Of a stretch of DNA of 64,000 nucleotides, positions 4,510-54,331 are shown piece by piece. The stretch is from Candidatus Omnitrophota bacterium (GTDB taxonomy: Bacteria; Omnitrophota; Omnitrophia; Omnitrophales; Aquincolibacteriaceae). Positions within the stretch are counted from its first letter, which is position 1. The number at the start of each line of letters is the position of its first letter. The stretch is taken from assembly GCA_043732705.1 (NCBI GenBank), contig JAYTHE010000025.1:315-64314 (forward strand), given 5' to 3'. The notes under the pieces are model-generated. The model was not told the origin of the DNA and did not search any database. It saw only the letters and a list, made by a program, of their open reading frames with translations. The position numbers were made by a program, and so were the translations under genes.

Positions 4510-4948
4510 TTTTTGCACCGGACGCCATCCCACGGGGAGGTGTTAGCTTTCTAACGCTTCCCCGTGGGACGGTGTCCGTTAAAGCAACCCAGGCGATTGC
4601 TTGTTTGCGTTCATGCGCGAGCGAAAGCAATAATGTTTGATTTCGTTTGATCCCTAATTCGCGGTTCAAATTTGGAGATAAAAGCAAGCAAGGCTTTCCG
4701 CTGCTCTTTTTTTTAATTTGAATTTGAAGCATTCGCTTGGCCCATTGCTTTGCGGGAATTCGAAAAAGGGCAAGACAAGCCTGCTTTGCGGCAATACGCG
4801 CGGCAGCCGGTTCGGCAAAATGGCGTTTTGATTTACAGTAACGAATTTCACCGGCGTTTAAAAAACGGGCAAGAAAATCGGGATGGGTTTCGGTCTTCTT
4901 TTTAACGGTAGAAACTGAAATTTGTACAATTTTCTGGCGCAAAATCAC
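4499..4948 (-). CDS. acpS: Holo-ACP synthase (4'-phosphopantetheinyl transferase), a divergent member. Possible GTG start.
   Basis: IVQISVSTVKKK...AARIAAKQACLALF...SLAHERKQAIAWVALTD aligns with the AcpS layout (EAxxKA and SLSHE-like motifs). The start codon is uncertain. Confidence 0.5.
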   Translation of the reverse strand: MILRQKIVQISVSTVKKKTETHPDFLARFLNAGEIRYCKSKRHFAEPAAARIAAKQACLALFRIPAKQWAKRMLQIQIKKKSSGKPCLLLSPNLNRELGIKRNQTLLLSLAHERKQAIAWVALTDTVPRGSVRKLTPPRGMASGAKNAA

Positions 4949-8326: not shown

Positions 8327-9583
8327 ATGCAAAACTCAGGCCGGCGCCATTTCTTGGATGCCTTAAAACTAGTCAATGTCAGGCTTTATATCGGAGCTGT
8401 TGGCTTTTTTACGCTAGCCAGCCGCGCGCTGGCGGTGGTCATTGGCTTTCAAATTTACCAACTGACACACAGCACCCTTGCTATCGGACTTTTAGGGCTT
8501 GTTGAGGCTTTCCCGGTCATTGGATTGGTTCTTTTTGGAGGCTATGCTGCGGACCATTTTGACCGCAAAAAAATACTGCTGCTTACCGGCGCAGTTTCCT
8601 GCGTTTGCGGCCTGGCTTTAGCATTTTTATCTTGGGAAAATCATCACTCTGTTCCCGTTTTTGGTTTATATATTGTTATTTTTTTAGCAGGCATTGCTCG
8701 GGGTTTTGCGGACCCCGCTAGCACAGCTTTTGAAACACAAGTGATTCCCAAGCATTTGACCGTAAGCGGCGGTTCATGGATCGGAAGCACTTGGATTGGC
8801 TGTTCGATTTTAGGTCCGGCGGCAATCGGCTTTATTTTCGCAGCCGGGGGTGCCGTAGCGTCTTACCTTGTGATCGCATGCTGTTTTATCATTTCATGGT
8901 TTTGTACGCTCGCGATCCAACCAATGCCGCAAGCGGTTCAAGAACAAACCGAATCTGTTTTTAAGAGTATCGGAACAGGTTGGAAATTTGTTTTTGGAAA
9001 TCAACCTTTGCTCGGCGCGCTGGCGCTTGATTTATTCGCGGTTCTTTTTGGTGGAGCAATGGCGCTTTTACCCGTATACGCTAATGACATTTTGCATGTC
9101 GGAGTCAAAGGTTTGGGATTATTAAATGCTGCGCCTTCGCTTGGCGCGATTTTAATCACGCTTTTAGCCACTCACAAACCGCCGATTGAAAAAGCCGGCC
9201 GAAATCTACTTCTCACGGTCGCGGGATTCGGCGCGAGTATCCTTGTTTTCGCGTTTTCAAAAAATTTTTGGCTATCCATGGCGGCATTATTTTTTAGCGG
9301 AATTTTTGACGGCATCAGTGTCGTGATCCGGCGCGCCATGATTCGCCTCTTGTCTCCCGAACATCTCCGCGGCCGTGTTGCGGCGGCAAGCTGGATTTTT
9401 ATCTGCTCATCCAATGAATTGGGTGCTTTTGAAAGCGGTATGCTAGCAAGCTTAATTGGAACCATTCCCTGTGTCGCGGTCGGAGGAGCGCTGACCTTTG
9501 TCGTGGTAGGATTGATCGCTGTTTCGATGCCAAAATTAAGGCAGCTTCGATTTAACCTTCAAACTTTTGAGCAAGAGACGTAG
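8327..9583 (+). CDS. MFS transporter.
   Basis: 418 aa with about 12 predicted TM helices and MFS-like motifs (GxxADHFDRKK). Confidence 0.7.
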   Translation: MQNSGRRHFLDALKLVNVRLYIGAVGFFTLASRALAVVIGFQIYQLTHSTLAIGLLGLVEAFPVIGLVLFGGYAADHFDRKKILLLTGAVSCVCGLALAFLSWENHHSVPVFGLYIVIFLAGIARGFADPASTAFETQVIPKHLTVSGGSWIGSTWIGCSILGPAAIGFIFAAGGAVASYLVIACCFIISWFCTLAIQPMPQAVQEQTESVFKSIGTGWKFVFGNQPLLGALALDLFAVLFGGAMALLPVYANDILHVGVKGLGLLNAAPSLGAILITLLATHKPPIEKAGRNLLLTVAGFGASILVFAFSKNFWLSMAALFFSGIFDGISVVIRRAMIRLLSPEHLRGRVAAASWIFICSSNELGAFESGMLASLIGTIPCVAVGGALTFVVVGLIAVSMPKLRQLRFNLQTFEQET

Positions 9584-17434: not shown

Positions 17435-17457
17435 CTTATCTTTATATTTTGTTTAAC

Positions 17458-17570
17458 CGTTCAAAAAGGGTTAGATGCGAGGCGCAAGCAAACGCCCGCG
17501 GAGGCGTAGAAGAACCTACGCCGCACAAGGAAGAGTAGCCTGCAACGAAGCAGATGACCTTTTTCAACGG
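17458..17570. repeat. Family-2 element, copy 3, between the C-methyltransferase and SDR genes.
   Basis: ccgttcaaaaagggttagatgcgaggcgcaagcaaacgcccgcggaggcgtagaagaacctacgccgcacaaggaag...gcagatgacctttttcaacgg. Confidence 0.7.
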
Positions 17571-18302
17571 TTAACTATTTGGTGGAACAATAATTTGGGT
17601 AATTTTTCCGTGCCTAATCACAATATGACTCGCCGTCAAAACCGGAATTTCTTCGTTCAAGATCTGCAGCATTTTACCGGCGACAAAGGCCGCTGTTTGC
17701 TGGCGCGCGGCATCCGCTTTGCCGAATAAATCAGAACGCATTTTGGTATTCATGCCTCCCGGACAAATAGTGACCACTTTGAGCCACTCAAGATTTTCTT
17801 TCGCGAGCGCTTCGGTCATCGCCAAAACTCCGAACTTGCTCGCGGAATAGCCCGCAATGCGCGGTACGGCGCGCACACCAGCCATGGACGAAACATTCAT
17901 CACAAGCGGTTGTTTGCTTTTTTTCAAAAATGGAAATGCCGCGCGGCACATCAAAAACACTGAAAATAAATTCCCGCGTAAATGCGCTTCGAATTCTTCG
18001 GGGGCCGTATCTTCAATCCGCTCCAGTTTACCGCCGTAAGCGGCGCTGTTCACGAGCAAATCAATTTTTGGCGTGCTTTTTTTTATCTCATGAAAGAGGC
18101 CTGCGACGGAATTAACGGAAGAAACATTAGCCTCGATCAACCGGAAATTTTTGGAAGGAATTTTTTTTCTGGCGGCGGACCAATGCTCGCTCGTACGGCT
18201 AACTCCAAAAACCTGCCAGCCGCTTTCAATCAAACGTTTGGAAAGCTCAAGCCCAAGTCCCCGTGAAGCTCCGGTAATCAGCGCAAACTTGCCGCTTGCC
18301 AT
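17571..18302 (-). CDS. SDR-family oxidoreductase.
   Basis: ALITGASRGLGLELSKRL...NSAAYGG...YSASKFGVLAMTEAL matches the TGxxxGxG and YxxxK SDR motifs. Confidence 0.8.
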   Translation of the reverse strand: MASGKFALITGASRGLGLELSKRLIESGWQVFGVSRTSEHWSAARKKIPSKNFRLIEANVSSVNSVAGLFHEIKKSTPKIDLLVNSAAYGGKLERIEDTAPEEFEAHLRGNLFSVFLMCRAAFPFLKKSKQPLVMNVSSMAGVRAVPRIAGYSASKFGVLAMTEALAKENLEWLKVVTICPGGMNTKMRSDLFGKADAARQQTAAFVAGKMLQILNEEIPVLTASHIVIRHGKITQIIVPPNS

Positions 18303-20583: not shown

Positions 20584-21843
20584 ATGCAATTCTTAAAAAA
20601 TCCCGCGAATTTAAAGAAAGCCGCCCTTTTCGCCTTGGCGGTGTTTCTCCTGATTCTGGGCGTTGTCACCGTTTTTCGCGCGGCTTTGTTTGCCGTTTCA
20701 CGAACGGACCTTACTGTTTATCTTCGTGCAAGCGAAGCTGTTTATACGGGCGCGGGCATTTACGATGTGCCCAATGCCCGGCAATGGCATTATGTTTATC
20801 TTCCTTTGCTTGCGCTTCTGCTCACTCCCCTGACAGTTTTACCGCTTTGGCTGAGCGCCGCAATTTGGTATTTAACCTCCGTCGCCGCATTCATCGGAAC
20901 TTTCCTGGGCTTGCAAAGTTTGTTTCCCAAACAACCTAAGTACTTCTGGATTATTTTATGCGCTTTTATCTTGGCCCTTCCACCGATACTCAACACCCTC
21001 ACACGCGGACAACTCGGCGGAATCAGTCTTTATCTGACCTTGCTTGTTTTCTTGCTCGATTATCGCGGCAAAAAATTTTGGGCGGGATTCGTGCTTGGGT
21101 TTGCCATTATTCTCAAAATGAGCCCGCTGTTAATTCTACCGTTTTATTTCCTTTTGCACCGGAACTGGCGCGCGCTGTGGGGCTGCTTTTGGGGCGGTTT
21201 GGTTTTCGGAATTCTCTTTCCTTCGGTTATTTTAACTCCCCAGCGCAACTGGGAATTTTTACTGCATTATTTCAAAATTTTATCCGAAGGCTCAAGTGAT
21301 CTCGGCTGGAAACATTATTTATGGCATGAACTTTTTACGCCTTTTGCGGAAGATAATCAGTCTTTTTACGCGGTCATCACCCGTCTTGTTTGGAAAAACC
21401 AGGAAAATATCGCAAATCATTCCAATACTTTGATTCGCGGCCTCAACCTCGGTTTGTTATTGGCTCTTCTGGGACTCGTAACTTGGGCTGTCACCCGCGG
21501 AAAAAATTTCGCAACTTTTCAGTTTTCGGCTTTTAAAGGCAAGGCTTGGACTCATGTCAGCAAGTTCACGGAATTCAGTTTACTATCCATGGTCATGCTT
21601 TTTGCTTCACCTGTTACTCAGCCCCACCATTACACACCACTCGTATTGCTCGGCACCGCTGCTTTTTTAAATATGGAAACTCATCCGTCACTCAAAAAAA
21701 TGCTTTGGAGTTGCATGATTATTTGTTTGATTTGTTTCGCGTTGGGAATGCTACTCGAGCCGCTGGGGGTCCTAGGTTTTCCGCTTTGGGGCAGTCTTCT
21801 GCTTTGGCTTGCGGTCCTCGGCACACGCTTCAAAACTGCCTGA
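20584..21843 (+). CDS. Polytopic membrane protein, GT87/DUF2029-like GT-C glycosyltransferase.
   Basis: 419 aa with more than 10 TM helices. N-terminal loop YTGAGIYDVPNARQWHYVYLPLLALLL is typical of the DUF2029 family. Confidence 0.55.
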   Translation: MQFLKNPANLKKAALFALAVFLLILGVVTVFRAALFAVSRTDLTVYLRASEAVYTGAGIYDVPNARQWHYVYLPLLALLLTPLTVLPLWLSAAIWYLTSVAAFIGTFLGLQSLFPKQPKYFWIILCAFILALPPILNTLTRGQLGGISLYLTLLVFLLDYRGKKFWAGFVLGFAIILKMSPLLILPFYFLLHRNWRALWGCFWGGLVFGILFPSVILTPQRNWEFLLHYFKILSEGSSDLGWKHYLWHELFTPFAEDNQSFYAVITRLVWKNQENIANHSNTLIRGLNLGLLLALLGLVTWAVTRGKNFATFQFSAFKGKAWTHVSKFTEFSLLSMVMLFASPVTQPHHYTPLVLLGTAAFLNMETHPSLKKMLWSCMIICLICFALGMLLEPLGVLGFPLWGSLLLWLAVLGTRFKTA

Positions 21844-21905
21844 CTTCTAAACTCTTTTGTGCAATGTCATTGCGAGCCGTAAGGCGAAGCAATCTGACGC
21901 TTTTT

Positions 21906-21963
21906 GTCATTCCCGCGAAGGCGGGAATCTAGGCTGGATCCCCCCGATCAAGTCGGGGATGAC
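21906..21963. repeat. Family-1 palindromic element, copy B, between convergent genes.
   Basis: gtcattcccgcgaaggcgggaatctaggctggatccccccgatcaagtcggggatgac. First hairpin is a perfect 8-bp stem. Confidence 0.75.
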
Positions 21964-22027
21964 ACTTCGTGTCAGATCGCCGCGTCGCCCAAAAAGGGCT
22001 CCTCGCGATGACGAAAATTTTAGGACG

Positions 22028-25000
22028 CTATGCGGAAAACGCGATCACTAATTCCGCCATCAATTGCTGCGCGAACTCTGCCATCACTCTAAATTCTTTT
22101 TCTCCGAAAAACTCTTCACGCGACTTAATTTTATCTTCGGGAACTAAAAGCGCTAATGTCGGCAGCCCGGCATTTTTTGTGCTGTAAGCCGCGCGAATAA
22201 TTTTTTTATTTCCGGGCAATTTATTCAAAAACTCGGAGTAGCCGGCAATGCGGTCATGCTGCCCAAAAAAGATAACGCGTTTGTAATTTCCGCGCAAACC
22301 ACTAAAAAAATCAACCCTGTTTTCGTCCGTAAATTGCCTTTTCAATAAGTCGAAACGTTTTTGAGCTTGGGCGCTCAAAATTTTCGTTCGATTTACGCGC
22401 AAATTAATTTTGGAATTAAGCCCAAGCAATGCCACGTACTCATTAAATTGAGCTTCCGTCATTGCTCCGAGCGTTTCATCGTCTAAAATCAAAAGTGCGG
22501 AATCACTGATTTGGGTTTGTTTGAATAAACTTAAAATCATTGCGGCATGATCTTCGGACGTGAGTGGCGCGGATGTATCGCGTAACTCCGACCTTGCGAT
22601 GCCAGACTTCTCTTGATGATTTTTATAGCGCTTGGAAAACACTTCAAAAGCCCCTGCCATTCCGCGTAAACGGAACATCTCCTTGACTTGCGCCATCACG
22701 GCTTCGCGCCGTTCCGGCGGAACCATACCCAGAACAAAATCCACCGTTTCAAAATCAAATATTTCTTCTTTTGGCGGCAATGCTTCGACTGTTACTGGGT
22801 GATTACGCGAAACCATAATCAATTTATTTGATTCCTGCGATGGGAATGTAATTGTCTTTTCAAGACCCGGGCCGTTATTAATCCTGCCGCCCTTTTGGGA
22901 TACCCAAACGGCAAACATACTGGTGTCTGATATTTCCGAACTTTGAAAAACGATTTTTTCCAATTGTGGCGCTTGTTCTAAAATTGTTAGAATATTGGCG
23001 GTCTCTACCTGCCGATTGATAATCATTTCTTTCAGATTTCTGGCGGCGCTCAAATCAAACGGTATTTCATCCCATCTGCTGCCTTCGCGAATGACAAAGC
23101 GCTCCATATTTTGAGCACCATTGATCAATTTTTGAATTGCCGAAAAATCACTGCTGTCACTCCTTGCTACATAATCAAACTCTAATTCAAAATTTCTGAC
23201 TTGCGCCATATGCGGTTCAAATTCCGCTAAAAATGCGTGATCCAAATCAGCCCAATTATCAATTCTCAGGGCTAAGCTTTGTAATTCTCGGCCGCTTTTA
23301 CCCAATTGCGGCAAAATAAATTGCGCTGAACCCTGATCGACGTCTAATTTTTCTAAAAGCGGCAAATCCACAGGATTGCGTAGCACTCTAGAACTAGAGG
23401 GTTTATCTATAACTAATTCGGTTAGAGTATTCGCAAACTCATGAATCCACATCCGGCCAAAAACATTTGTTTTCTCTGTCGTCCTTATAATCAATCGTTT
23501 AATGGGAAATCGTAAATTTTGAATGAGTTTTTCAACCACATCGGTAAAATTTCCGCCTAAATTGGTCTTATCAAATCCCAATGAATGAATCTTACGGCCT
23601 CTTACCGCATCAAATACTCCACGCAAAAATTTTGCATCGTATGATTGTTCGCCGAAATAAAGCGAATCAAGATTGGGCATAACATCTATAATTTTTTTAA
23701 TTTTATCGATTGTTTTCTGAGTTGTCTCGGTCATGTCTAGCTTAATGGCGCGCAACTGAGAATTTTTTATAGCATCTAACAGAAAAGAAACTGCTTTCGG
23801 ATTTTCTTGGGCGGAATAATCAAAATGATCCTCCAAAACCAGCCCCTCTACCATTGGAAATTGTCTTTTTAAGTCTGGAAGAAACTTAGAGGCAAGATAC
23901 ATCTGCCAAATTGTTAAAAAAACTTTTCCGTCTTCAGCTTTAAATAAAGCTACACCGCTAAGCTGCATTTTTGCTAGTTTTTCGTTGTACTCAGCCGCGA
24001 TTTCTTTGGCGGATTTTTCGGATACCGAAGCTGAAGATGCGACCGACGGCGGTGAAGCCGGTTTAGTTTCGGAAAATACTATTGTAACTTCATGCAATCC
24101 AAAGGCATTCGCAACGAGATCAATGAGTATTTTAAACTGTCTGCCATGAGAAAGAAGAGACTGTTTGAGTTGCTGTGCATCGGAGATATCATTAACTTTG
24201 AATGCGATTTTTTTCAAACCGGGTAAATAGTCATTGATATCGTCAATACGCTCAATTCCAATACGGTTGTCGATCGTAAGTTCTTTGAGCTGCCGGAGTT
24301 TATGCAGACCCAAAGATTCAATATCCGCTAAGCTATCGAGATGAATATCGACCAAGGTTATTTTTTCAGCGTTTGGCACGCTCTTAATGTTGAATCGAAA
24401 ACCTTCAAGATCATCGGGGCGTGTCTGAACCGTGAGTTCCTGGATACCCCCAAAATAAGCGTTCAAAGTTCTCAATAAACCCCGGGCATTGGCATTCGAC
24501 GACACAAACGATAATTCTAGTTTCTTCAAGCTTGGCGTAATCGATTCAAAAAATTTCTCCGTATTGTCTACCACCGTATCGCCTGCGGCGGCGTTTAGAA
24601 AACTGCTGGATAGCGAAAGAGTTTGGATGGGGCGGCCCTTGATTGCATTCAAAACAATTTGCACAAATGCAGGGCTGTAGTCTGCTCCTCCAAAATAAAG
24701 CGCCTTTGTTTGGGACAGCTTTTCTAAGACCGTAATTAAATAATCGCGTCCAATCGTATCACTTTCATAAGCACGGCCCGTAAAATCACTGTCTTCTAAA
24801 TAAATTGCATCAAAATCTTGACGCAAACCCAAGATAAGAGTTCCTGCTGAAAAATCCAGATTGTCATCAAAGACAATACCGTCAATCTTTGGAAACTCTT
24901 TAAGAAAATCCAGATTGTATCGTTGACTATGCACATATAACGCTTGTTGAGCTTTTAAAAATACTCGGCCGTCATGCGCCCAAAAAATAAAATGGTCGGC

Positions 25001-44897: not shown

Positions 44898-45599
44898 ATG
44901 CTTCTGAATTTTGGAGCTTTTGTGAACCGCGACTGTCCTTCTCAAACATCCATCGGAAAAAAAGTTCTCATGGCGCTAACCGGGCTCATGTTGTCCGGCT
45001 TTATCGTGGGCCATCTTCTCGGCAATCTGACGATTTTCGGCGGCCGGACCATGATTAACTCTTATGCCTATCATCTTGAAGAGCTCAAACCCCTGCTGTG
45101 GATCGCGCGCATTTCACTTTTAGCTTTGATTATCATTCATATTCTTTCCGCGATTTGCGTGACGATTAAAAATAGAGTGGCCCGCCCCATCGGCTACGCC
45201 AAGAAAGAACATCAAAGCACCTCCGTCGGCGCACGCACGATGGCTGTTACAGGGACAGTCATTCTCGCTTTTATTATTTTCCATCTGATGCATTTCACTT
45301 GGCGTATCACTCACCCTGAACTTTCAAACGGTATTGATGTTAATGGACACCGTGATGTTTTCCGTTTAGTTGTTTTAAGTTTTCAGCGCCCCGAACTTGC
45401 TTTTACCTATGTCGCCGCTTTAACGCTGTTGTTTTTACATTTAAGCCACGGGCTTTGGAGTTTATTTCAATCCTTGGGGCTGCTCGGCGAAAGAAGTTTA
45501 CCGGTTGCGAAAAAAATTTCATGTACGATTTCATTTATTCTTTATTTGGCTTATATTTCTATTCCCCTTTCCTGTTATTTTGGATTGGTAAAAATTTAA
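44898..45599 (+). CDS. sdhC: Succinate dehydrogenase/fumarate reductase cytochrome b subunit (single-subunit, five-TM, type-B anchor).
   Basis: Multi-TM with conserved His residues (GHLLGNL, IIHIL, FHLMHF, LHLSHGLWS). First gene of the sdhCAB order. Confidence 0.7.
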   Translation: MLLNFGAFVNRDCPSQTSIGKKVLMALTGLMLSGFIVGHLLGNLTIFGGRTMINSYAYHLEELKPLLWIARISLLALIIIHILSAICVTIKNRVARPIGYAKKEHQSTSVGARTMAVTGTVILAFIIFHLMHFTWRITHPELSNGIDVNGHRDVFRLVVLSFQRPELAFTYVAALTLLFLHLSHGLWSLFQSLGLLGERSLPVAKKISCTISFILYLAYISIPLSCYFGLVKI

Positions 45600-45651
45600 T
45601 GACGACATTTTTTATGGAACAAAGTGAATATAAAAAATCTGTCGGAATTAA

Positions 45652-45727
45652 ATCCCCGCGAAAGCGGGGATCTAGGATTAAAAATTTGAATAATTTAGAA
45701 CTAGATTCCCGCCTGCGCGGGAATGAC
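45652..45727. repeat. Family-1 palindromic element, copy C, ending 5 nt before the sdhA ATG.
   Basis: aatccccgcgaaagcggggatctaggatt-(A/T-rich 21 nt)-ctagattcccgcctgcgcgggaatgac. Confidence 0.75.
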
Positions 45728-45732
45728 AAAAA

Positions 45733-47646
45733 ATGAAAAAAATTAATTCCAATATTCCCGCGGGAGACCTCAAAGACAAATGGCAAAACCGTCTTGCCGA
45801 ATACAAGCTCGTTAATCCCGCGAACAAGCGCAAACATAAAATTATTATTGTCGGAACCGGTTTAGCCGGTGCTTCTGCGGCCGCAACTCTCGCCGAGCTT
45901 GGGTATAACGTCGAATCCTTTTGCTATCAGGACTCGCCCCGCCGCGCGCACAGTATTGCCGCCCAAGGCGGAATTAATGCCGCGAAAAACTATCGTGGCG
46001 ACAATGACAGTGTTTACCGTTTGTTTTATGACACAATCAAAGGCGGCGATTTTCGTGCGCGGGAAGCGAATGTTTACCGTTTGGCGCAAGTCAGCGGCAG
46101 TATTATTGATCAATGCGCGGCACAGGGCGTTCCTTTCGCGCGTGAATACAGCGGCTATCTCGCGAACCGTTCTTTCGGCGGTGCGCAGGTTTCGCGCACT
46201 TTTTACGCTCGCGGACAAACCGGCCAACAGCTTCTTTTAGGCGCTTATCAAGCGCTTGAACGTCAAATTGCCGCAAAAAAAGTGACTATGCATGAACGTA
46301 CCGAAATGCTTGATCTGGTGCTTGTGAACGGCCAGGCCCGCGGAATTATTTCACGCGATATGGTCACGGGCGAAATCACAAAGCATGTTGCGGATTGCGT
46401 CATTCTCGCGACCGGCGGATACAGTAATGTGTTTTATCTTTCGACCAATGCCAAAGGCTGTAATGCATCCGCTATTTACCGCGCCCATAAACGCGGTGCC
46501 TTACTTGCGAATCCCTGCTATACCCAAATTCATCCGACATGCATTCCTGTCAGCGGCGAGTATCAATCCAAATTGACATTGATGTCCGAATCTTTGCGCA
46601 ATGACGGGCGCATTTGGGCGCCAAAAGCTAAAGGCGATAAACGCGCTCCGGCTCAAATTCCTGAAAACGAACGCGATTACTTTCTTGAAAGAAAATATCC
46701 GAGCTACGGCAATCTTGCGCCGCGTGATATCGCTTCCCGTGCCGCGAAAGAAGCTTGTGATGAAGGCCGCGGAGTCGGGCCAACGGGTTTAGGCGTTTAT
46801 CTCGATTTGGCGGATGCAATTAAACGTCTTGGCAAAGAAACAATCAAAGAAAAATACGGCAATCTTTTGGATATGTATAACCGTATTACCGGTGAAGATC
46901 CTTATTCCGAACCGATGCGCATTTACCCCGCCGTGCATTACACCATGGGTGGTTTGTGGGTGGACTATGATTTGATGAGCAATATTCCCGGACTTTTTGT
47001 TGTGGGTGAAGCCAATTTTTCCGATCACGGTGCCAATCGTTTAGGCGCCAGCGCATTGATGCAGGGTTTGGCCGATGGTTATTTTGTCGTTCCCCACTCC
47101 GTGTCGAATTATATCGCAAGCGTGAAACCCGCAAAAGTTACAACAGATGCACCGGAATTCAATACGGTTCAAAAGGAAACTCAAGATAAAATTAAAAAAA
47201 TGCTTTCCGTCAACGGCAGCACAACCGTCGATGAATATCACCGCCGCCTCGGAAAAATTGTTTGGGATAAATGCGGCATGGCCCGCTCCAAAGCCGGCTT
47301 GGAACAAGCGATCAAAGAAATTCAATTGCTGCGTGCCGATTTTTGGAAAAATGTCAAAGTTTTGGGGACTAATGAAGAGCTCAACCAATCGCTCGAAAAA
47401 GCCGGCCGCGTCGCGGACTTTCTCGAATTCGGCGAACTCATGTGCATTGACGCTCTCACCCGCGAAGAATCCTGCGGCGGCCATTTCCGCGTGGAATATC
47501 AGGAAGAAGGCGAAGCAAAACGTAATGATGAAAAATTTACTTATGCCGCGGCGTGGGAATATAAAGGCGAGGGCGTAAAACCCGAATTACACAAAGAAGA
47601 ATTAAAATTCGAATCGATTCATCTTCAAACCAGGTCTTATAAATAG
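45733..47646 (+). CDS. sdhA: Succinate dehydrogenase/fumarate reductase flavoprotein subunit.
   Basis: [22 protein letters not shown] is the FAD-binding motif. [14 protein letters not shown] carries the covalent-FAD His. 637 aa. Confidence 0.9.
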
Positions 47647-47708
47647 CACCCAGGCTCACATCGGATGTGTATAACCCTGTACACATCCGATGTGTACGAG
47701 GTTACACA

Positions 47709-47785
47709 AATGAAGCTCACTTTAAAAGTTTGGCGGCAGAAAAATGAAATAAGTGCACAATTTACGGAACGCAGTGAAAGTAAAT
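47709..47785 (+). pseudogene. Degenerate duplicate of the sdhB 5' end (about 75 nt) upstream of authentic sdhB.
   Basis: atgaagctcactttaaaagtttggcggcag... versus sdhB atgaaattaatactaaaagtatggcggcaa... (MKLTLKVWRQ versus [10 protein letters not shown]). This frame terminates in a TGA overlapping the sdhB ATG. Confidence 0.6.
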
Positions 47786-47826
47786 TGTTTGCACGAATTT
47801 CATCCCAGAAACGCGAAGCGTTATCA

Positions 47827-47864
47827 GGGATCCAGAACTGGATCCCCGCCTGCGCGGGGATGAC
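47827..47864. repeat. Family-1 palindromic element, copy D (half element), 12 nt upstream of the sdhB ATG.
   Basis: gggatccagaactggatccccgcctgcgcggggatgac. Confidence 0.7.
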
Positions 47865-47876
47865 AAGGTTGAAAAT

Positions 47877-48641
47877 ATGAAATTAATACTAAAAGTATGG
47901 CGGCAACCAAACCAAAGCACTAAAGGTAAATTCGAAACTTACCACACCGACGCTGACGAACACATGTCCTTCCTTGAAATGCTGGATGTTGTGAATGAAA
48001 AACTCATTCACGAAGGCAAAGACCCTATCGCGTTTGACCATGATTGCCGCGAAGGTATTTGCGGCGCCTGCTCGATGGTCATTAACGGACTGCCCCACGG
48101 CCCGCAAAAAGCGACAACAACTTGCCAGTTACATATGCGCCACTTTAAAGACGGTGAAATCGTGGTGATTGAGCCCTGGCGCGCGGCAGCCTTCCCTGTT
48201 TTAAAAGACTTAGTCGTCGATCGCGGTTCCTTCGACCGCATCATTCAAGCCGGCGGATATACATCTGCGGCAACCGGCGGTGTTCCGGATGCGAATTCGA
48301 TTTTGATTCCGAAGGAAAGAGCGGATGAAGCCATGGACGCTGCGCAATGTATCGGCTGCGGCGCTTGTGTCGCGGCTTGCCCTAATGCTTCCGCGATGCT
48401 CTTCGTTGCGGCTAAAGTATCCCATCTTGCGAATCTTCCTCAAGGACAAATCGAAGCTAAAACCCGCGTGCAAAATATGGTGAATCGTATGGATGCAGAA
48501 GGTTTTGGAAATTGTACCAATCATGGCGAATGCCAAAGTTCATGCCCGAAGGAAATCTCAATTAAGTTTATCGCCAAGATGAATCGTGAATTTTTAGGCA
48601 GTTTGACCCACGAACAAAAAACCTCCAACGAATCTGCCTAG
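47877..48641 (+). CDS. sdhB: Succinate dehydrogenase/fumarate reductase iron-sulfur subunit.
   Basis: [16 protein letters not shown] (2Fe-2S), [21 protein letters not shown] (4Fe-4S/3Fe-4S) cysteine clusters. Confidence 0.9.
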
Positions 48642-54150: not shown

Positions 54151-54186
54151 GCGATTTTTTTGAGCTCATATACTTTTTCCCATGTT

Positions 54187-54331
54187 CGTTCAAAAAGCTT
54201 TAGATGCAAGGCGCAAACAAGTGCCCGCGGAGGCGTAGTAAAACCTACGCCTCACAAGCTGCAAATCGTTTGGCGATTTGCTAAAGCAAATCACTGGCAG
54301 TTTGCAACGCAGCAGATGAAACTTTTTCAAC
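54187..54331. repeat. Family-2 element, copy 4, with a roughly 35-nt internal insertion carrying a hairpin.
   Basis: cgttcaaaaagctttagatgcaaggcgcaaacaagtgcccgcggaggcgtagtaaaacctacgcctcacaag...gcagatgaaactttttcaacg. Insert gcaaatcg-tttgg-cgatttgc. Confidence 0.65.

Follow-up and report, generated by a model that had tools for sequence, protein, structure and literature searches.

The sdhCAB operon on the 64-kb stretch of Candidatus Omnitrophota DNA analysed here (64,000 nt of contig JAYTHE010000025.1; hereafter the window) carries a palindromic composite at each of its two gene junctions. Each composite, called element C at the sdhC-sdhA junction and element D at the sdhA-sdhB junction, consists of a 60-nt hairpin, H0, followed by two hairpins that resemble the Neisseria repeat NTS. 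The explanation that we favor, and that we consider fairly probable as a whole, is that composites of this type, whose units match the published pattern of Ssn-related motifs (SRM), were inserted into the operon and retained, that ribosomes would cross them in short relay frames that keep the genes coupled, and that an sdhB-like fragment next to element D (R1) is a remnant of recombination.

The names given to the three genes in an initial annotation were borne out by NCBIfam matches. They lie on the plus strand in the order sdhC (44898..45599; cytochrome b558-family subunit; TIGR02046, E 2.6e-49; stop codon TAA at 45597-45599), sdhA (45733..47646; flavoprotein subunit; NF005749, 1173 bits; stop codon TAG) and sdhB (47877..48641; iron-sulfur subunit; NF005746, E 9e-129), the real start of the last being placed by its homologues. 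The host is Omnitrophota-like, as the top named relatives of both SdhB and SdhA carry the label Candidatus Omnitrophota. To compare the junctions, we retrieved the operon of eleven relatives, represented by genomes or contigs. Close relatives were obtained by exact-protein look-ups; a scan of a genome collection with SdhB saturated on conserved peptides, returned only relatives of at most 72% identity and was of no use for the junctions, and a metagenome scan with SdhC gave two close loci, one of which, L094, has element C. L094 derives from a metagenome sequenced by JGI, whereas L001 is a metagenome-assembled genome deposited at NCBI; the two are independent assemblies. In the SdhA tree, the window and L001 are sisters, L103-L105 branch next, and L094 follows.

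The junctions of these relatives show both filled and empty sites. The sdhC and sdhA genes abut (TAA-N-ATG or TAATG; 0-2 nt) in L001, L103, L104, L105, L004 and L007, and element C was present between them only in the window and L094. At the second junction, sdhA and sdhB overlap (TAATG) in L103, L004 and L007, are separated by 22-23 nt in L090 and L091, and are separated by a spacer of 43-53 nt with a small hairpin in L092, L094, L104 and L105; in L102, the gap is filled by another repeat family. Element D was found there only in the window and in its sister L001, a distribution that fits a single gain in their common ancestor. Since the junctions of the relatives abut or overlap, both spacers of the window are derived insertions. 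The initial annotation had described the elements as precisely placed, and the distances are as it gave them: the terminal GAC of copy C ends at 45727, 5 nt upstream of the sdhA ATG, and copy D ends at 47864, 12 nt upstream of the sdhB ATG. The placement is not remarkable in itself, however, since the ancestral spacer was only 0-2 nt long and any viable insertion must span the stop codon to the start codon.

Repeats can break or mis-join metagenome assemblies, and one related contig (L101) ends inside sdhB; an assembly or binning artefact, in which repeat-driven mis-joins would have created chimeric junction spacers, was therefore weighed, as the initial annotation had suggested. Against it, orthologous elements stand at the same positions in L094 and L001, which derive from other samples, and the flanking genes are intact and collinear with those of all relatives. 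Since independent assemblies share these copies, an assembly artefact is excluded, and we give this explanation as a whole a negligible probability.

The repeat unit shared by the two elements belongs to a wider family in the window. The palindrome TCCCCGC-N4-GCGGGGA occurs five times with at most two mismatches, against 0.21 expected, and a repeat finder placed the copies at four loci: copy A at 443-499, copy B at 21905-21964, copy C at 45648-45727 and copy D at about 47798-47864. Their consensus is (T)GTCAT-YCCCGC-N4-GCGGGR-ATCYAG. At five sites, the units, of the form TGTCATTCCCGCG(A/C)A(A/G)GCGGGAATCTAG, differ by only 1-3 mismatches from the Neisseria NTS, CGTCATTCCCGCGMAVGCGGGAATCYRG, a 28-nt sequence that is an oriented extension of the 20-bp dRS3 repeat ATTCCC-N8-GGGAAT (PMC11893778). 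The SRM pattern, HGTCWYN(0-2)YYVSBRHN(0-5)WNVSBRGN(0-2)RNCYNB as published (PMC11893778), matched the window five times (at 443, 21905, 21934, 45701 and 47838), compared with a mean of 0.04 and a maximum of 1 in 50 dinucleotide-shuffled windows. SRM units are inverted repeats of 20-50 nt that can form hairpins in single-stranded DNA, and the 20-nt cores here fold as DNA hairpins of -8.3 to -9.6 kcal/mol (z -3.6 to -5.1). Judged by its sequence, hairpin and enrichment, the unit belongs with the hairpin repeats of the NTS/dRS3 type, published under the name SRM. In Neisseria, such hairpins in single-stranded DNA are cleaved by SsnA, a single-domain GIY-YIG nuclease of 94 amino acids, and SRM hairpins occur together with ssn genes of the cd10448 type, which they often flank, in several phyla, although Omnitrophota is absent from the phyla mentioned (PMC11893778). 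How NTS/SRM repeats spread is not known (PMC11893778, Nat Commun 2025).

Alignment of C with D, using the window, L094 and L001, revealed the composite structure and showed that the elements reach further left than the boundaries first assigned to them. H0 occupies 45594-45653 and 47744-47803 in the window, 4287-4346 in L094 and 4868-4927 in L001. In element C, H0 (45594..45653, plus strand), delimited by folds, covariation and a covariance model, holds the sdhC stop codon and an old ATG in its left arm. It is followed by the first NTS-like hairpin (45648..45675, plus strand; ATCCCCGC GAAA GCGGGGAT CTAG), which has TTAAAT in place of the usual GTCAT head, and by the second NTS/SRM unit (45701..45728, minus strand; TGTCATTCCCGCGCAGGCGGGAATCTAG), which has one mismatch to the Neisseria NTS consensus. 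In element D, H0 (47744..47803, plus strand) is followed by a longer variant of the first hairpin (47800..47832, plus strand; CATCCC AGA AACGC GAA GCGTT ATCA GGGATC) and by an NTS/SRM unit (47838..47865, minus strand; TGTCATCCCCGCGCAGGCGGGGATCCAG). H0 starts at the upstream stop codon in element C of the window (sdhC TAA) and in element D of L001, whose homologous left arm opens with the sdhA stop codon TGA. H0 was not found in copies A and B.

The pairing within the composites is well preserved. RNA folds of the elements gave z values of -6.8 and -8.2. H0 folds into stem segments of 6, 5 and 8 bp with a GGA/GAA internal loop, followed by 2 bp and a triloop. Among its four sequences, 99% of the cells are paired, a share that falls to 31-50% if the partners are shifted out of register. 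Eight of the 19 stem pairs are invariant and 11 have changed on both sides, with none changed on one side only. The two apical pairs likewise covary, and the GGA/GAA loop is invariant. Between the window and L001, element D shows further two-sided changes: AACGC/GCGTT versus AATGC/GCATT in the inner stem of its first hairpin, and CCCGC/GCGGG versus CCTG/CAGG in its second unit. The outer stems of H0 (ATTTAAT/ATTAAAT in C, TGAAAT/ATTTCA in D) pair with the old region around the stop codon. This raised the question of whether the target flank had served as template for the right arm. The inner stem, however, does not derive from the flank, and only 2 of 7 positions differ in the outer stems, so that microhomology where the insert joined its target accounts for the pattern equally well.

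These features raise the alternative that H0 is an sdh-specific regulatory module, acting in cis by clamping the old start together with the stop codon of the upstream gene, with the NTS units as its vehicle only; it could serve as a site for a protein or small RNA, or as a REP-like ribosome stall, and thereby tune the SdhC/SdhA/SdhB ratio. The covariation is strong and the apical motif conserved, H0 is 92% identical between the window and L094, and REPs near stop codons have been reported to stall ribosomes (PMC12306157). The covariance model found H0 only at the two sdh junctions (in the window, L094 and L001), four sites in 333 kb, of which the part outside the window is mostly sdh neighborhoods, so that specificity for sdh is only weakly tested by this count. 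By contrast, the four instances amount to two orthologous pairs, most close relatives do without H0, the absence of G-U pairs is unusual for a structure acting at the RNA level, and there is no match in Rfam: apart from four tRNAs, no Rfam 15 family reached its gathering threshold in the window, and the junctions gave only sub-threshold, chance-level matches. We regard this alternative as improbable.

We then asked how well the elements are conserved relative to their surroundings. Element C is 88% identical between the window and L094, while four-fold sites in the flanking genes are only 38-43% identical; element D is 74% identical between the window and L001, with four-fold sites at 41-53%. 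Chance identity at four-fold sites is about 31%. Other non-coding DNA beside the operon aligned with scores of 14-18, the random level, compared with 100-106 for the elements. From these comparisons, the elements would either be under purifying selection or be younger than the divergence of the genomes, through lateral or repeated acquisition.

Next to element D lies the displaced sdhB start R1 (47698..47745, plus strand), composed of GAGG, an ATG at 47710 and 12 codons whose product (MKLTLKVWRQKN) is identical to the SdhB N-terminus of several relatives. It is preceded by hairpin X (47657..47696), a perfect palindrome of 15-17 bp (-15.9 kcal/mol as DNA) that is unique in the window and was absent from 106 fetched loci. 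The initial annotation had described a degenerate duplicate of the sdhB start of about 75 nt. On alignment, similarity to the real sdhB start was significant for 47693-47745 (2 of 2000 shuffles) and not for 47746-47800 (211 of 2000 shuffles), which is H0 and is homologous to the L001 spacer and to element C. Thus, the duplicated part shrinks to about 48 nt, a ribosome-binding site and 12 codons (36 coding nt).

The explanation implied by that description was an in-place duplication, in which the arrival of element D would have copied the sdhB start, through a long target duplication or a tandem one, with later decay of the upstream copy. The two copies are indeed collinear, each with an AAGG/GAGG-GTT ribosome-binding region, and the elements lie between short direct repeats that take in the start codon, AATGACGAC / AATGACAAT for C in L094 and ATGAAATAAG / ATGAAATTAA for D (GTGAAATAAG in L001). 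However, over its 12 codons R1 is identical to the resident sdhB at only 25 of 36 nt, compared with 29-31 of 36 for five other lineages, including L001, L094 and L004 (31/36 for L004 and 29/36 for L094, both with no non-synonymous difference). A dead copy should gather mostly non-synonymous changes, whereas R1 differs from the resident gene by six synonymous and two non-synonymous codons. Moreover, the similarity ends after codon 12, and the sister L001 has D without R1. In-place duplication is hence doubtful. As R1 is nearer to other lineages and its differences are mostly synonymous, recombination with a diverged allele fits better than duplication in place followed by decay. An event linked to the element did leave an sdhB start fragment, as first suggested, but the view that this is a degenerate 75-nt copy of the resident gene is not supported. 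Judged by its few codons, it is about an even bet that R1 served as a functional start of sdhB until not long ago, be it in this lineage or elsewhere.

The comparison with L001 locates the joint. In L001, element D directly follows the sdhA stop codon (AAG TGA AAT AAG...), and the window equals L001 plus 98 nt (47644-47741: TAG, hairpin X, the ribosome-binding site and 35 nt of sdhB) before the shared TGAAATAAG. The joint, CAGAAAAA|TGAAAT, resembles both the sdhA-end/sdhB-start junction AAATAATGAA and codons 10-14 of the L094-type sdhB, AAAAAATGCAAAT. This fits an illegitimate joint at microhomology together with a homologous crossover in sdhA; a deletion of the 98 nt in L001 fits equally well. 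A recombination footprint next to an NTS-type repeat would also be in line, by analogy, with the link of dRS3/NTS to recombination and transformation proposed for Neisseria (PMC11893778). The flanking direct repeats, for their part, are 9-10 nt long with 1-2 mismatches, and their ATG(A) is expected at any stop/start junction; they may be target duplications of 9-10 nt that regenerated the downstream start codon, or microhomologies used in joining.

How could a coupled operon tolerate such insertions? Searches of the sense strand found neither a terminator-like site nor a T-run at the junction hairpins X, H0 and the two NTS-like ones (H1 and H2), and no promoter-like sites were present in the junction spacers. 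With neither, co-transcription of sdhCAB across both junctions is expected. Each spacer also contains a candidate relay frame. At the first junction, the old ATG at 45599 overlaps the sdhC stop codon (TAATG, 45597-45601) and opens a frame of 45 codons across the whole of element C (45599..45736, plus strand), whose TGA overlaps the real sdhA ATG (ATGA, 45733-45736). The old ATG is followed by ACGACA, and its ATGAC is shared with the real sdhA start of the empty site in L001 (ATGACAACT). In L094, a length difference of 23 nt shifts the frame, which nevertheless stays open from the old ATG to 6 nt before the real one. At the second junction, the frame from the R1 ATG, with GAGG upstream, runs through element D (47710..47880, plus strand) to a TGA on the real sdhB ATG (ATGA, 47877-47880), as the initial annotation had noted; it had missed the same anatomy, an old start and an ATGA-terminated frame, at the sdhC-sdhA junction. 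The frame through D is open from the sdhA stop codon onward and in frame with sdhA; read-through of the TAG would lengthen SdhA by 77 residues across 47644-47880, reaching the sdhB start. The homologous frame in L001 is open too and ends in ATGA. The second NTS hairpin, whose folding energy is -8 to -9 kcal/mol for DNA and greater for RNA, stops 5-12 nt short of each real start, a position at which it would hinder independent initiation. The idea of translational coupling is consistent with the ATGA overlaps.

Taken together, these observations suggest the following course of events. Two composites, each of H0 and two SRM units, would have entered the abutting or overlapping sdhCAB junctions in an Omnitrophota-like lineage. 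Transcription would pass through the hairpins, as T-runs are missing, and the start codon left beside the upstream stop would open a frame across the element that ends in ATGA on the real start. Ribosomes in this frame could melt the hairpins and re-initiate at the ATGA, a process that may be termed relayed translational coupling and that would preserve the coupling that relatives obtain by direct gene overlap. The elements would have been kept since, their pairing preserved by two-sided changes, and would now be either constrained or repeatedly renewed. R1 and hairpin X would represent a separate, later event, the remnant of a recently functional sdhB start; recombination with a diverged sdh operon would most likely have fused it to element D, at the left end of the element and at the short A-rich microhomology AAAAATGAAAT.

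The principal alternative is that the elements are neutral passengers, selfish hairpin insertions without a present role; junction insertions alone spare the genes, and the frames and ATGA overlaps would be by-products. Such by-products are easily produced, since two of the three frames of NTS units lack stops and the ATGAAA at which each real gene begins supplies the TGA automatically. When the interiors were shuffled, an open relay frame appeared in 6.8% of cases for element C and 11% for element D of the window, and in 22% for element C of L094, values that are not extreme; the joint chance for the two window junctions is about 0.7%. Element C of L094 has only one stop in two of the three frames, and the junction may simply be permissive, since L102 holds another repeat family there and other relatives hold other small spacers. 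Against passengers stand the element identities of 74-88% despite near-saturated four-fold sites and other non-coding DNA that cannot be aligned, the stem changes, all of which are two-sided, and an AT-rich extra segment of 25 nt in element C of the window, which has stops in the other two frames and none in the relay frame. We judge the passenger explanation rather unlikely, though less so than the regulatory and duplication alternatives.

Several points weigh against relayed coupling and the history proposed with it. The frame through D in L001 lacks a start codon near the sdhA stop, which also suits passengers, and given that NTS units are naturally poor in stop codons, the relay-frame argument is only moderately significant. 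The survey of Shine-Dalgarno sequences was too noisy to use, and mechanically assigned open reading frame (ORF) starts were unreliable. All H0 pairs are Watson-Crick with no G-U, a pattern that a palindrome at the DNA level, or correction templated by the hairpin, would explain no less well than selection on RNA. Element C is shared with L094 and yet missing from the closer L001 and L103-L105, so that its history involves at least two losses after one old insertion, or independent or lateral gains. The case for R1 comprises 12 codons, and no recombination tract was detected in sdhA by sliding identity or third codon positions. Finally, an ssn-like gene was not found in the 64-kb window (no ORF with a GIY...YIG motif), and none of ten small window ORFs had a Pfam GIY-YIG match; the missing gene in 64 kb says little about the whole genome.

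A bolder extension, to which we assign a low probability, is that the composite has become a domesticated intercistronic module in which H0 clamps the upstream stop codon and the relay ORF passes ribosomes from SdhC to SdhA to SdhB. If this were true, the subunit ratios would be set by hairpin stability or by an H0-binding factor, and it would be the first RNA- or translation-level role proposed for repeats of the NTS/SRM type; likewise, the flanking repeats and the remnant would be the first clues to repeat movement and recombination outside Neisseria.

The two remaining copies of the family lie outside the operon, and both are doublets with inverted ends. Copy A (443-499; 57 nt), formed by two inverted NTS-like units, is an in-frame insert in leuS, which lies on the minus strand with its frame open over 3-719. 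It adds about 19-21 amino acids to LeuRS between the conserved GAEVTF and VYTTRPDT, and the insert is missing from seven of eight aligned homologues. Its multiple-of-three length and position inside a conserved protein mark copy A as an in-frame coding insertion of the kind seen with Rickettsia palindromic elements (RPE). In favor of the relay reading, copy A shows that units of this family can be translated. A LeuRS fragment from another bacterium (P0242) has a different insert, HPERSEGSREILRQKTPQDD, at exactly the loop occupied by copy A; this insert resembles a translated member of some other palindromic repeat family, and the loop may be a recurrent landing site for repeats.

Copy B (21905..21964), made of two inverted SRM units, lies between the convergent ORFs 20584-21843 (plus strand) and 22028-44695 (minus strand), as initially described. 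The terminator role then suggested for it is not upheld: we found no terminator-like site in 21700-22150 and no T-run after the hairpins. Copy B stands within a mosaic (21866-22015) whose four hairpin units represent at least three kinds; for example, GTCATTGCGAGCC...GGCGAAGCAATC precedes it and a GTCATCGCGAGGAGCCC-type unit follows on the other strand; this layout is reminiscent of the Neisseria mosaic elements. ORF 22028-44695 has 7555 codons with many internally repeated modules and lies directly upstream of sdhC. In its place, the seven relatives for which the upstream region was recovered have a gene for a GT87 glycosyltransferase and an epimerase gene.

Other palindromic sequences were seen in the same regions. 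The small hairpin in the sdhA-sdhB spacer of four relatives, TTGGGCTNTAGCCCAR, is conserved (L092 412-454, L094 6320-6372, L104 4918-4960 and L105 11918-11960) and may be an older state of the spacer or another tiny repeat. We also considered the 22-23-nt spacers of L090 and L091 as deletion scars of D, with similarity too short to test. A second repeat family of about 100-120 nt, with a central hairpin GGCGTAG...CTACGCC and inverted ends, occurs in the window at 1362-1481, 1669-1787, 17455-17573 and 54184-54283, and in L102 at 527-670; two of its copies adjoin tRNA genes. As it fills the sdhA-sdhB spacer of L102, this junction has been colonized independently by two repeat families. The window further contains an inverted repeat at 4519-4578 (28-nt arms, 86% complementary, 4-nt loop) between two minus-strand ORFs. 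In L001, one canonical NTS-like unit and another GC hairpin lie at 8412-8445, between ubiD and a PMSR gene; in the window, unlike L001, the neighbor gene of ubiD begins 3 nt away (51794/51798), without a spacer.

Among known systems, the elements are closest to the NTS/dRS3/SRM repeats, with which they share a nearly identical sequence, the hairpins, multiple copies that are often inverted pairs, clustering with other hairpin units (copy B), and a recombination footprint adjoining one window copy. They differ in their Omnitrophota-like host with no ssn gene found in the 64-kb window, in their location, at the start and stop codons within an operon and, for copy A, within a coding sequence, and in the additional covarying hairpin H0, which is not part of NTS. 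Mosaic arrays in which palindromes of the dRS3 type flank other short repeat units are characteristic of the Neisseria intergenic mosaic elements (NIME), which the composite of H0 and two units and the mosaic around copy B resemble, as they resemble Correia elements in being probably co-transcribed with neighboring genes. Correia elements, which are MITEs, are however distinguished by promoters and RNase III sites as well as by defined terminal inverted repeats with a TA duplication, whereas the flanking repeats in the window are 9-10-nt candidates.

The initial annotation called the elements REP-like, which is fair as an analogy. REP and BIME sequences of enterobacteria and pseudomonads are likewise short GC-rich palindromes that occur singly or as inverted pairs between operon genes; REPs stabilize mRNA and, within 15 nt of a stop codon, affect translation (PMC12306157). 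Their sequence is different, the window units starting with GTCAT rather than GTAG, and one of the copies here is intragenic. In the absence of the GTAG head, a REP in the strict sense is ruled out; no gene for a RAYT (Y1 transposase) was noticed in the window, in a search that was not exhaustive. RPE insert in frame into coding genes and are translated (PMC10969869), as copy A does in leuS, but they are about 100-150 bp long and unrelated in sequence, and here there is one in-frame case while the sdh copies are not fused to proteins. With classic coupling by termination-reinitiation at TAATG or ATGA, the locus shares the abutting or overlapping codons by which relatives join sdhC-sdhA-sdhB, the old starts that overlap or follow the upstream stop, and inserted frames that end in ATGA on the next start; the putative relay through a spacer ORF of 45-56 codons encoded by a mobile repeat is what sets it apart.

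The connection between NTS/SRM repeats and a nuclease family dates only from 2025. From a distant phylum, this locus offers dated natural experiments: filled and empty sites at two coupled junctions, an in-frame insertion and a recombination remnant. It shows an essential, translationally coupled operon absorbing stable hairpins of 130-230 nt at its start codons, and it suggests a testable rule, that insertions survive only if the ribosome relay is kept. It also urges caution in annotation, as such repeats yield false small ORFs, false duplications and extended proteins. Its value lies mainly in H0 and in these lessons on how repeats move and are tolerated. The repeat is thus of a kind already known, and the locus is a well-documented case rather than a new system. 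Its novelty lies in where the repeats sit and in how they are combined: the host belongs to Omnitrophota, the insertions fall at the start codons of a respiratory operon whose genes are coupled, and they come with a covarying hairpin, possible relay frames and an abutting remnant of a foreign or displaced gene start.

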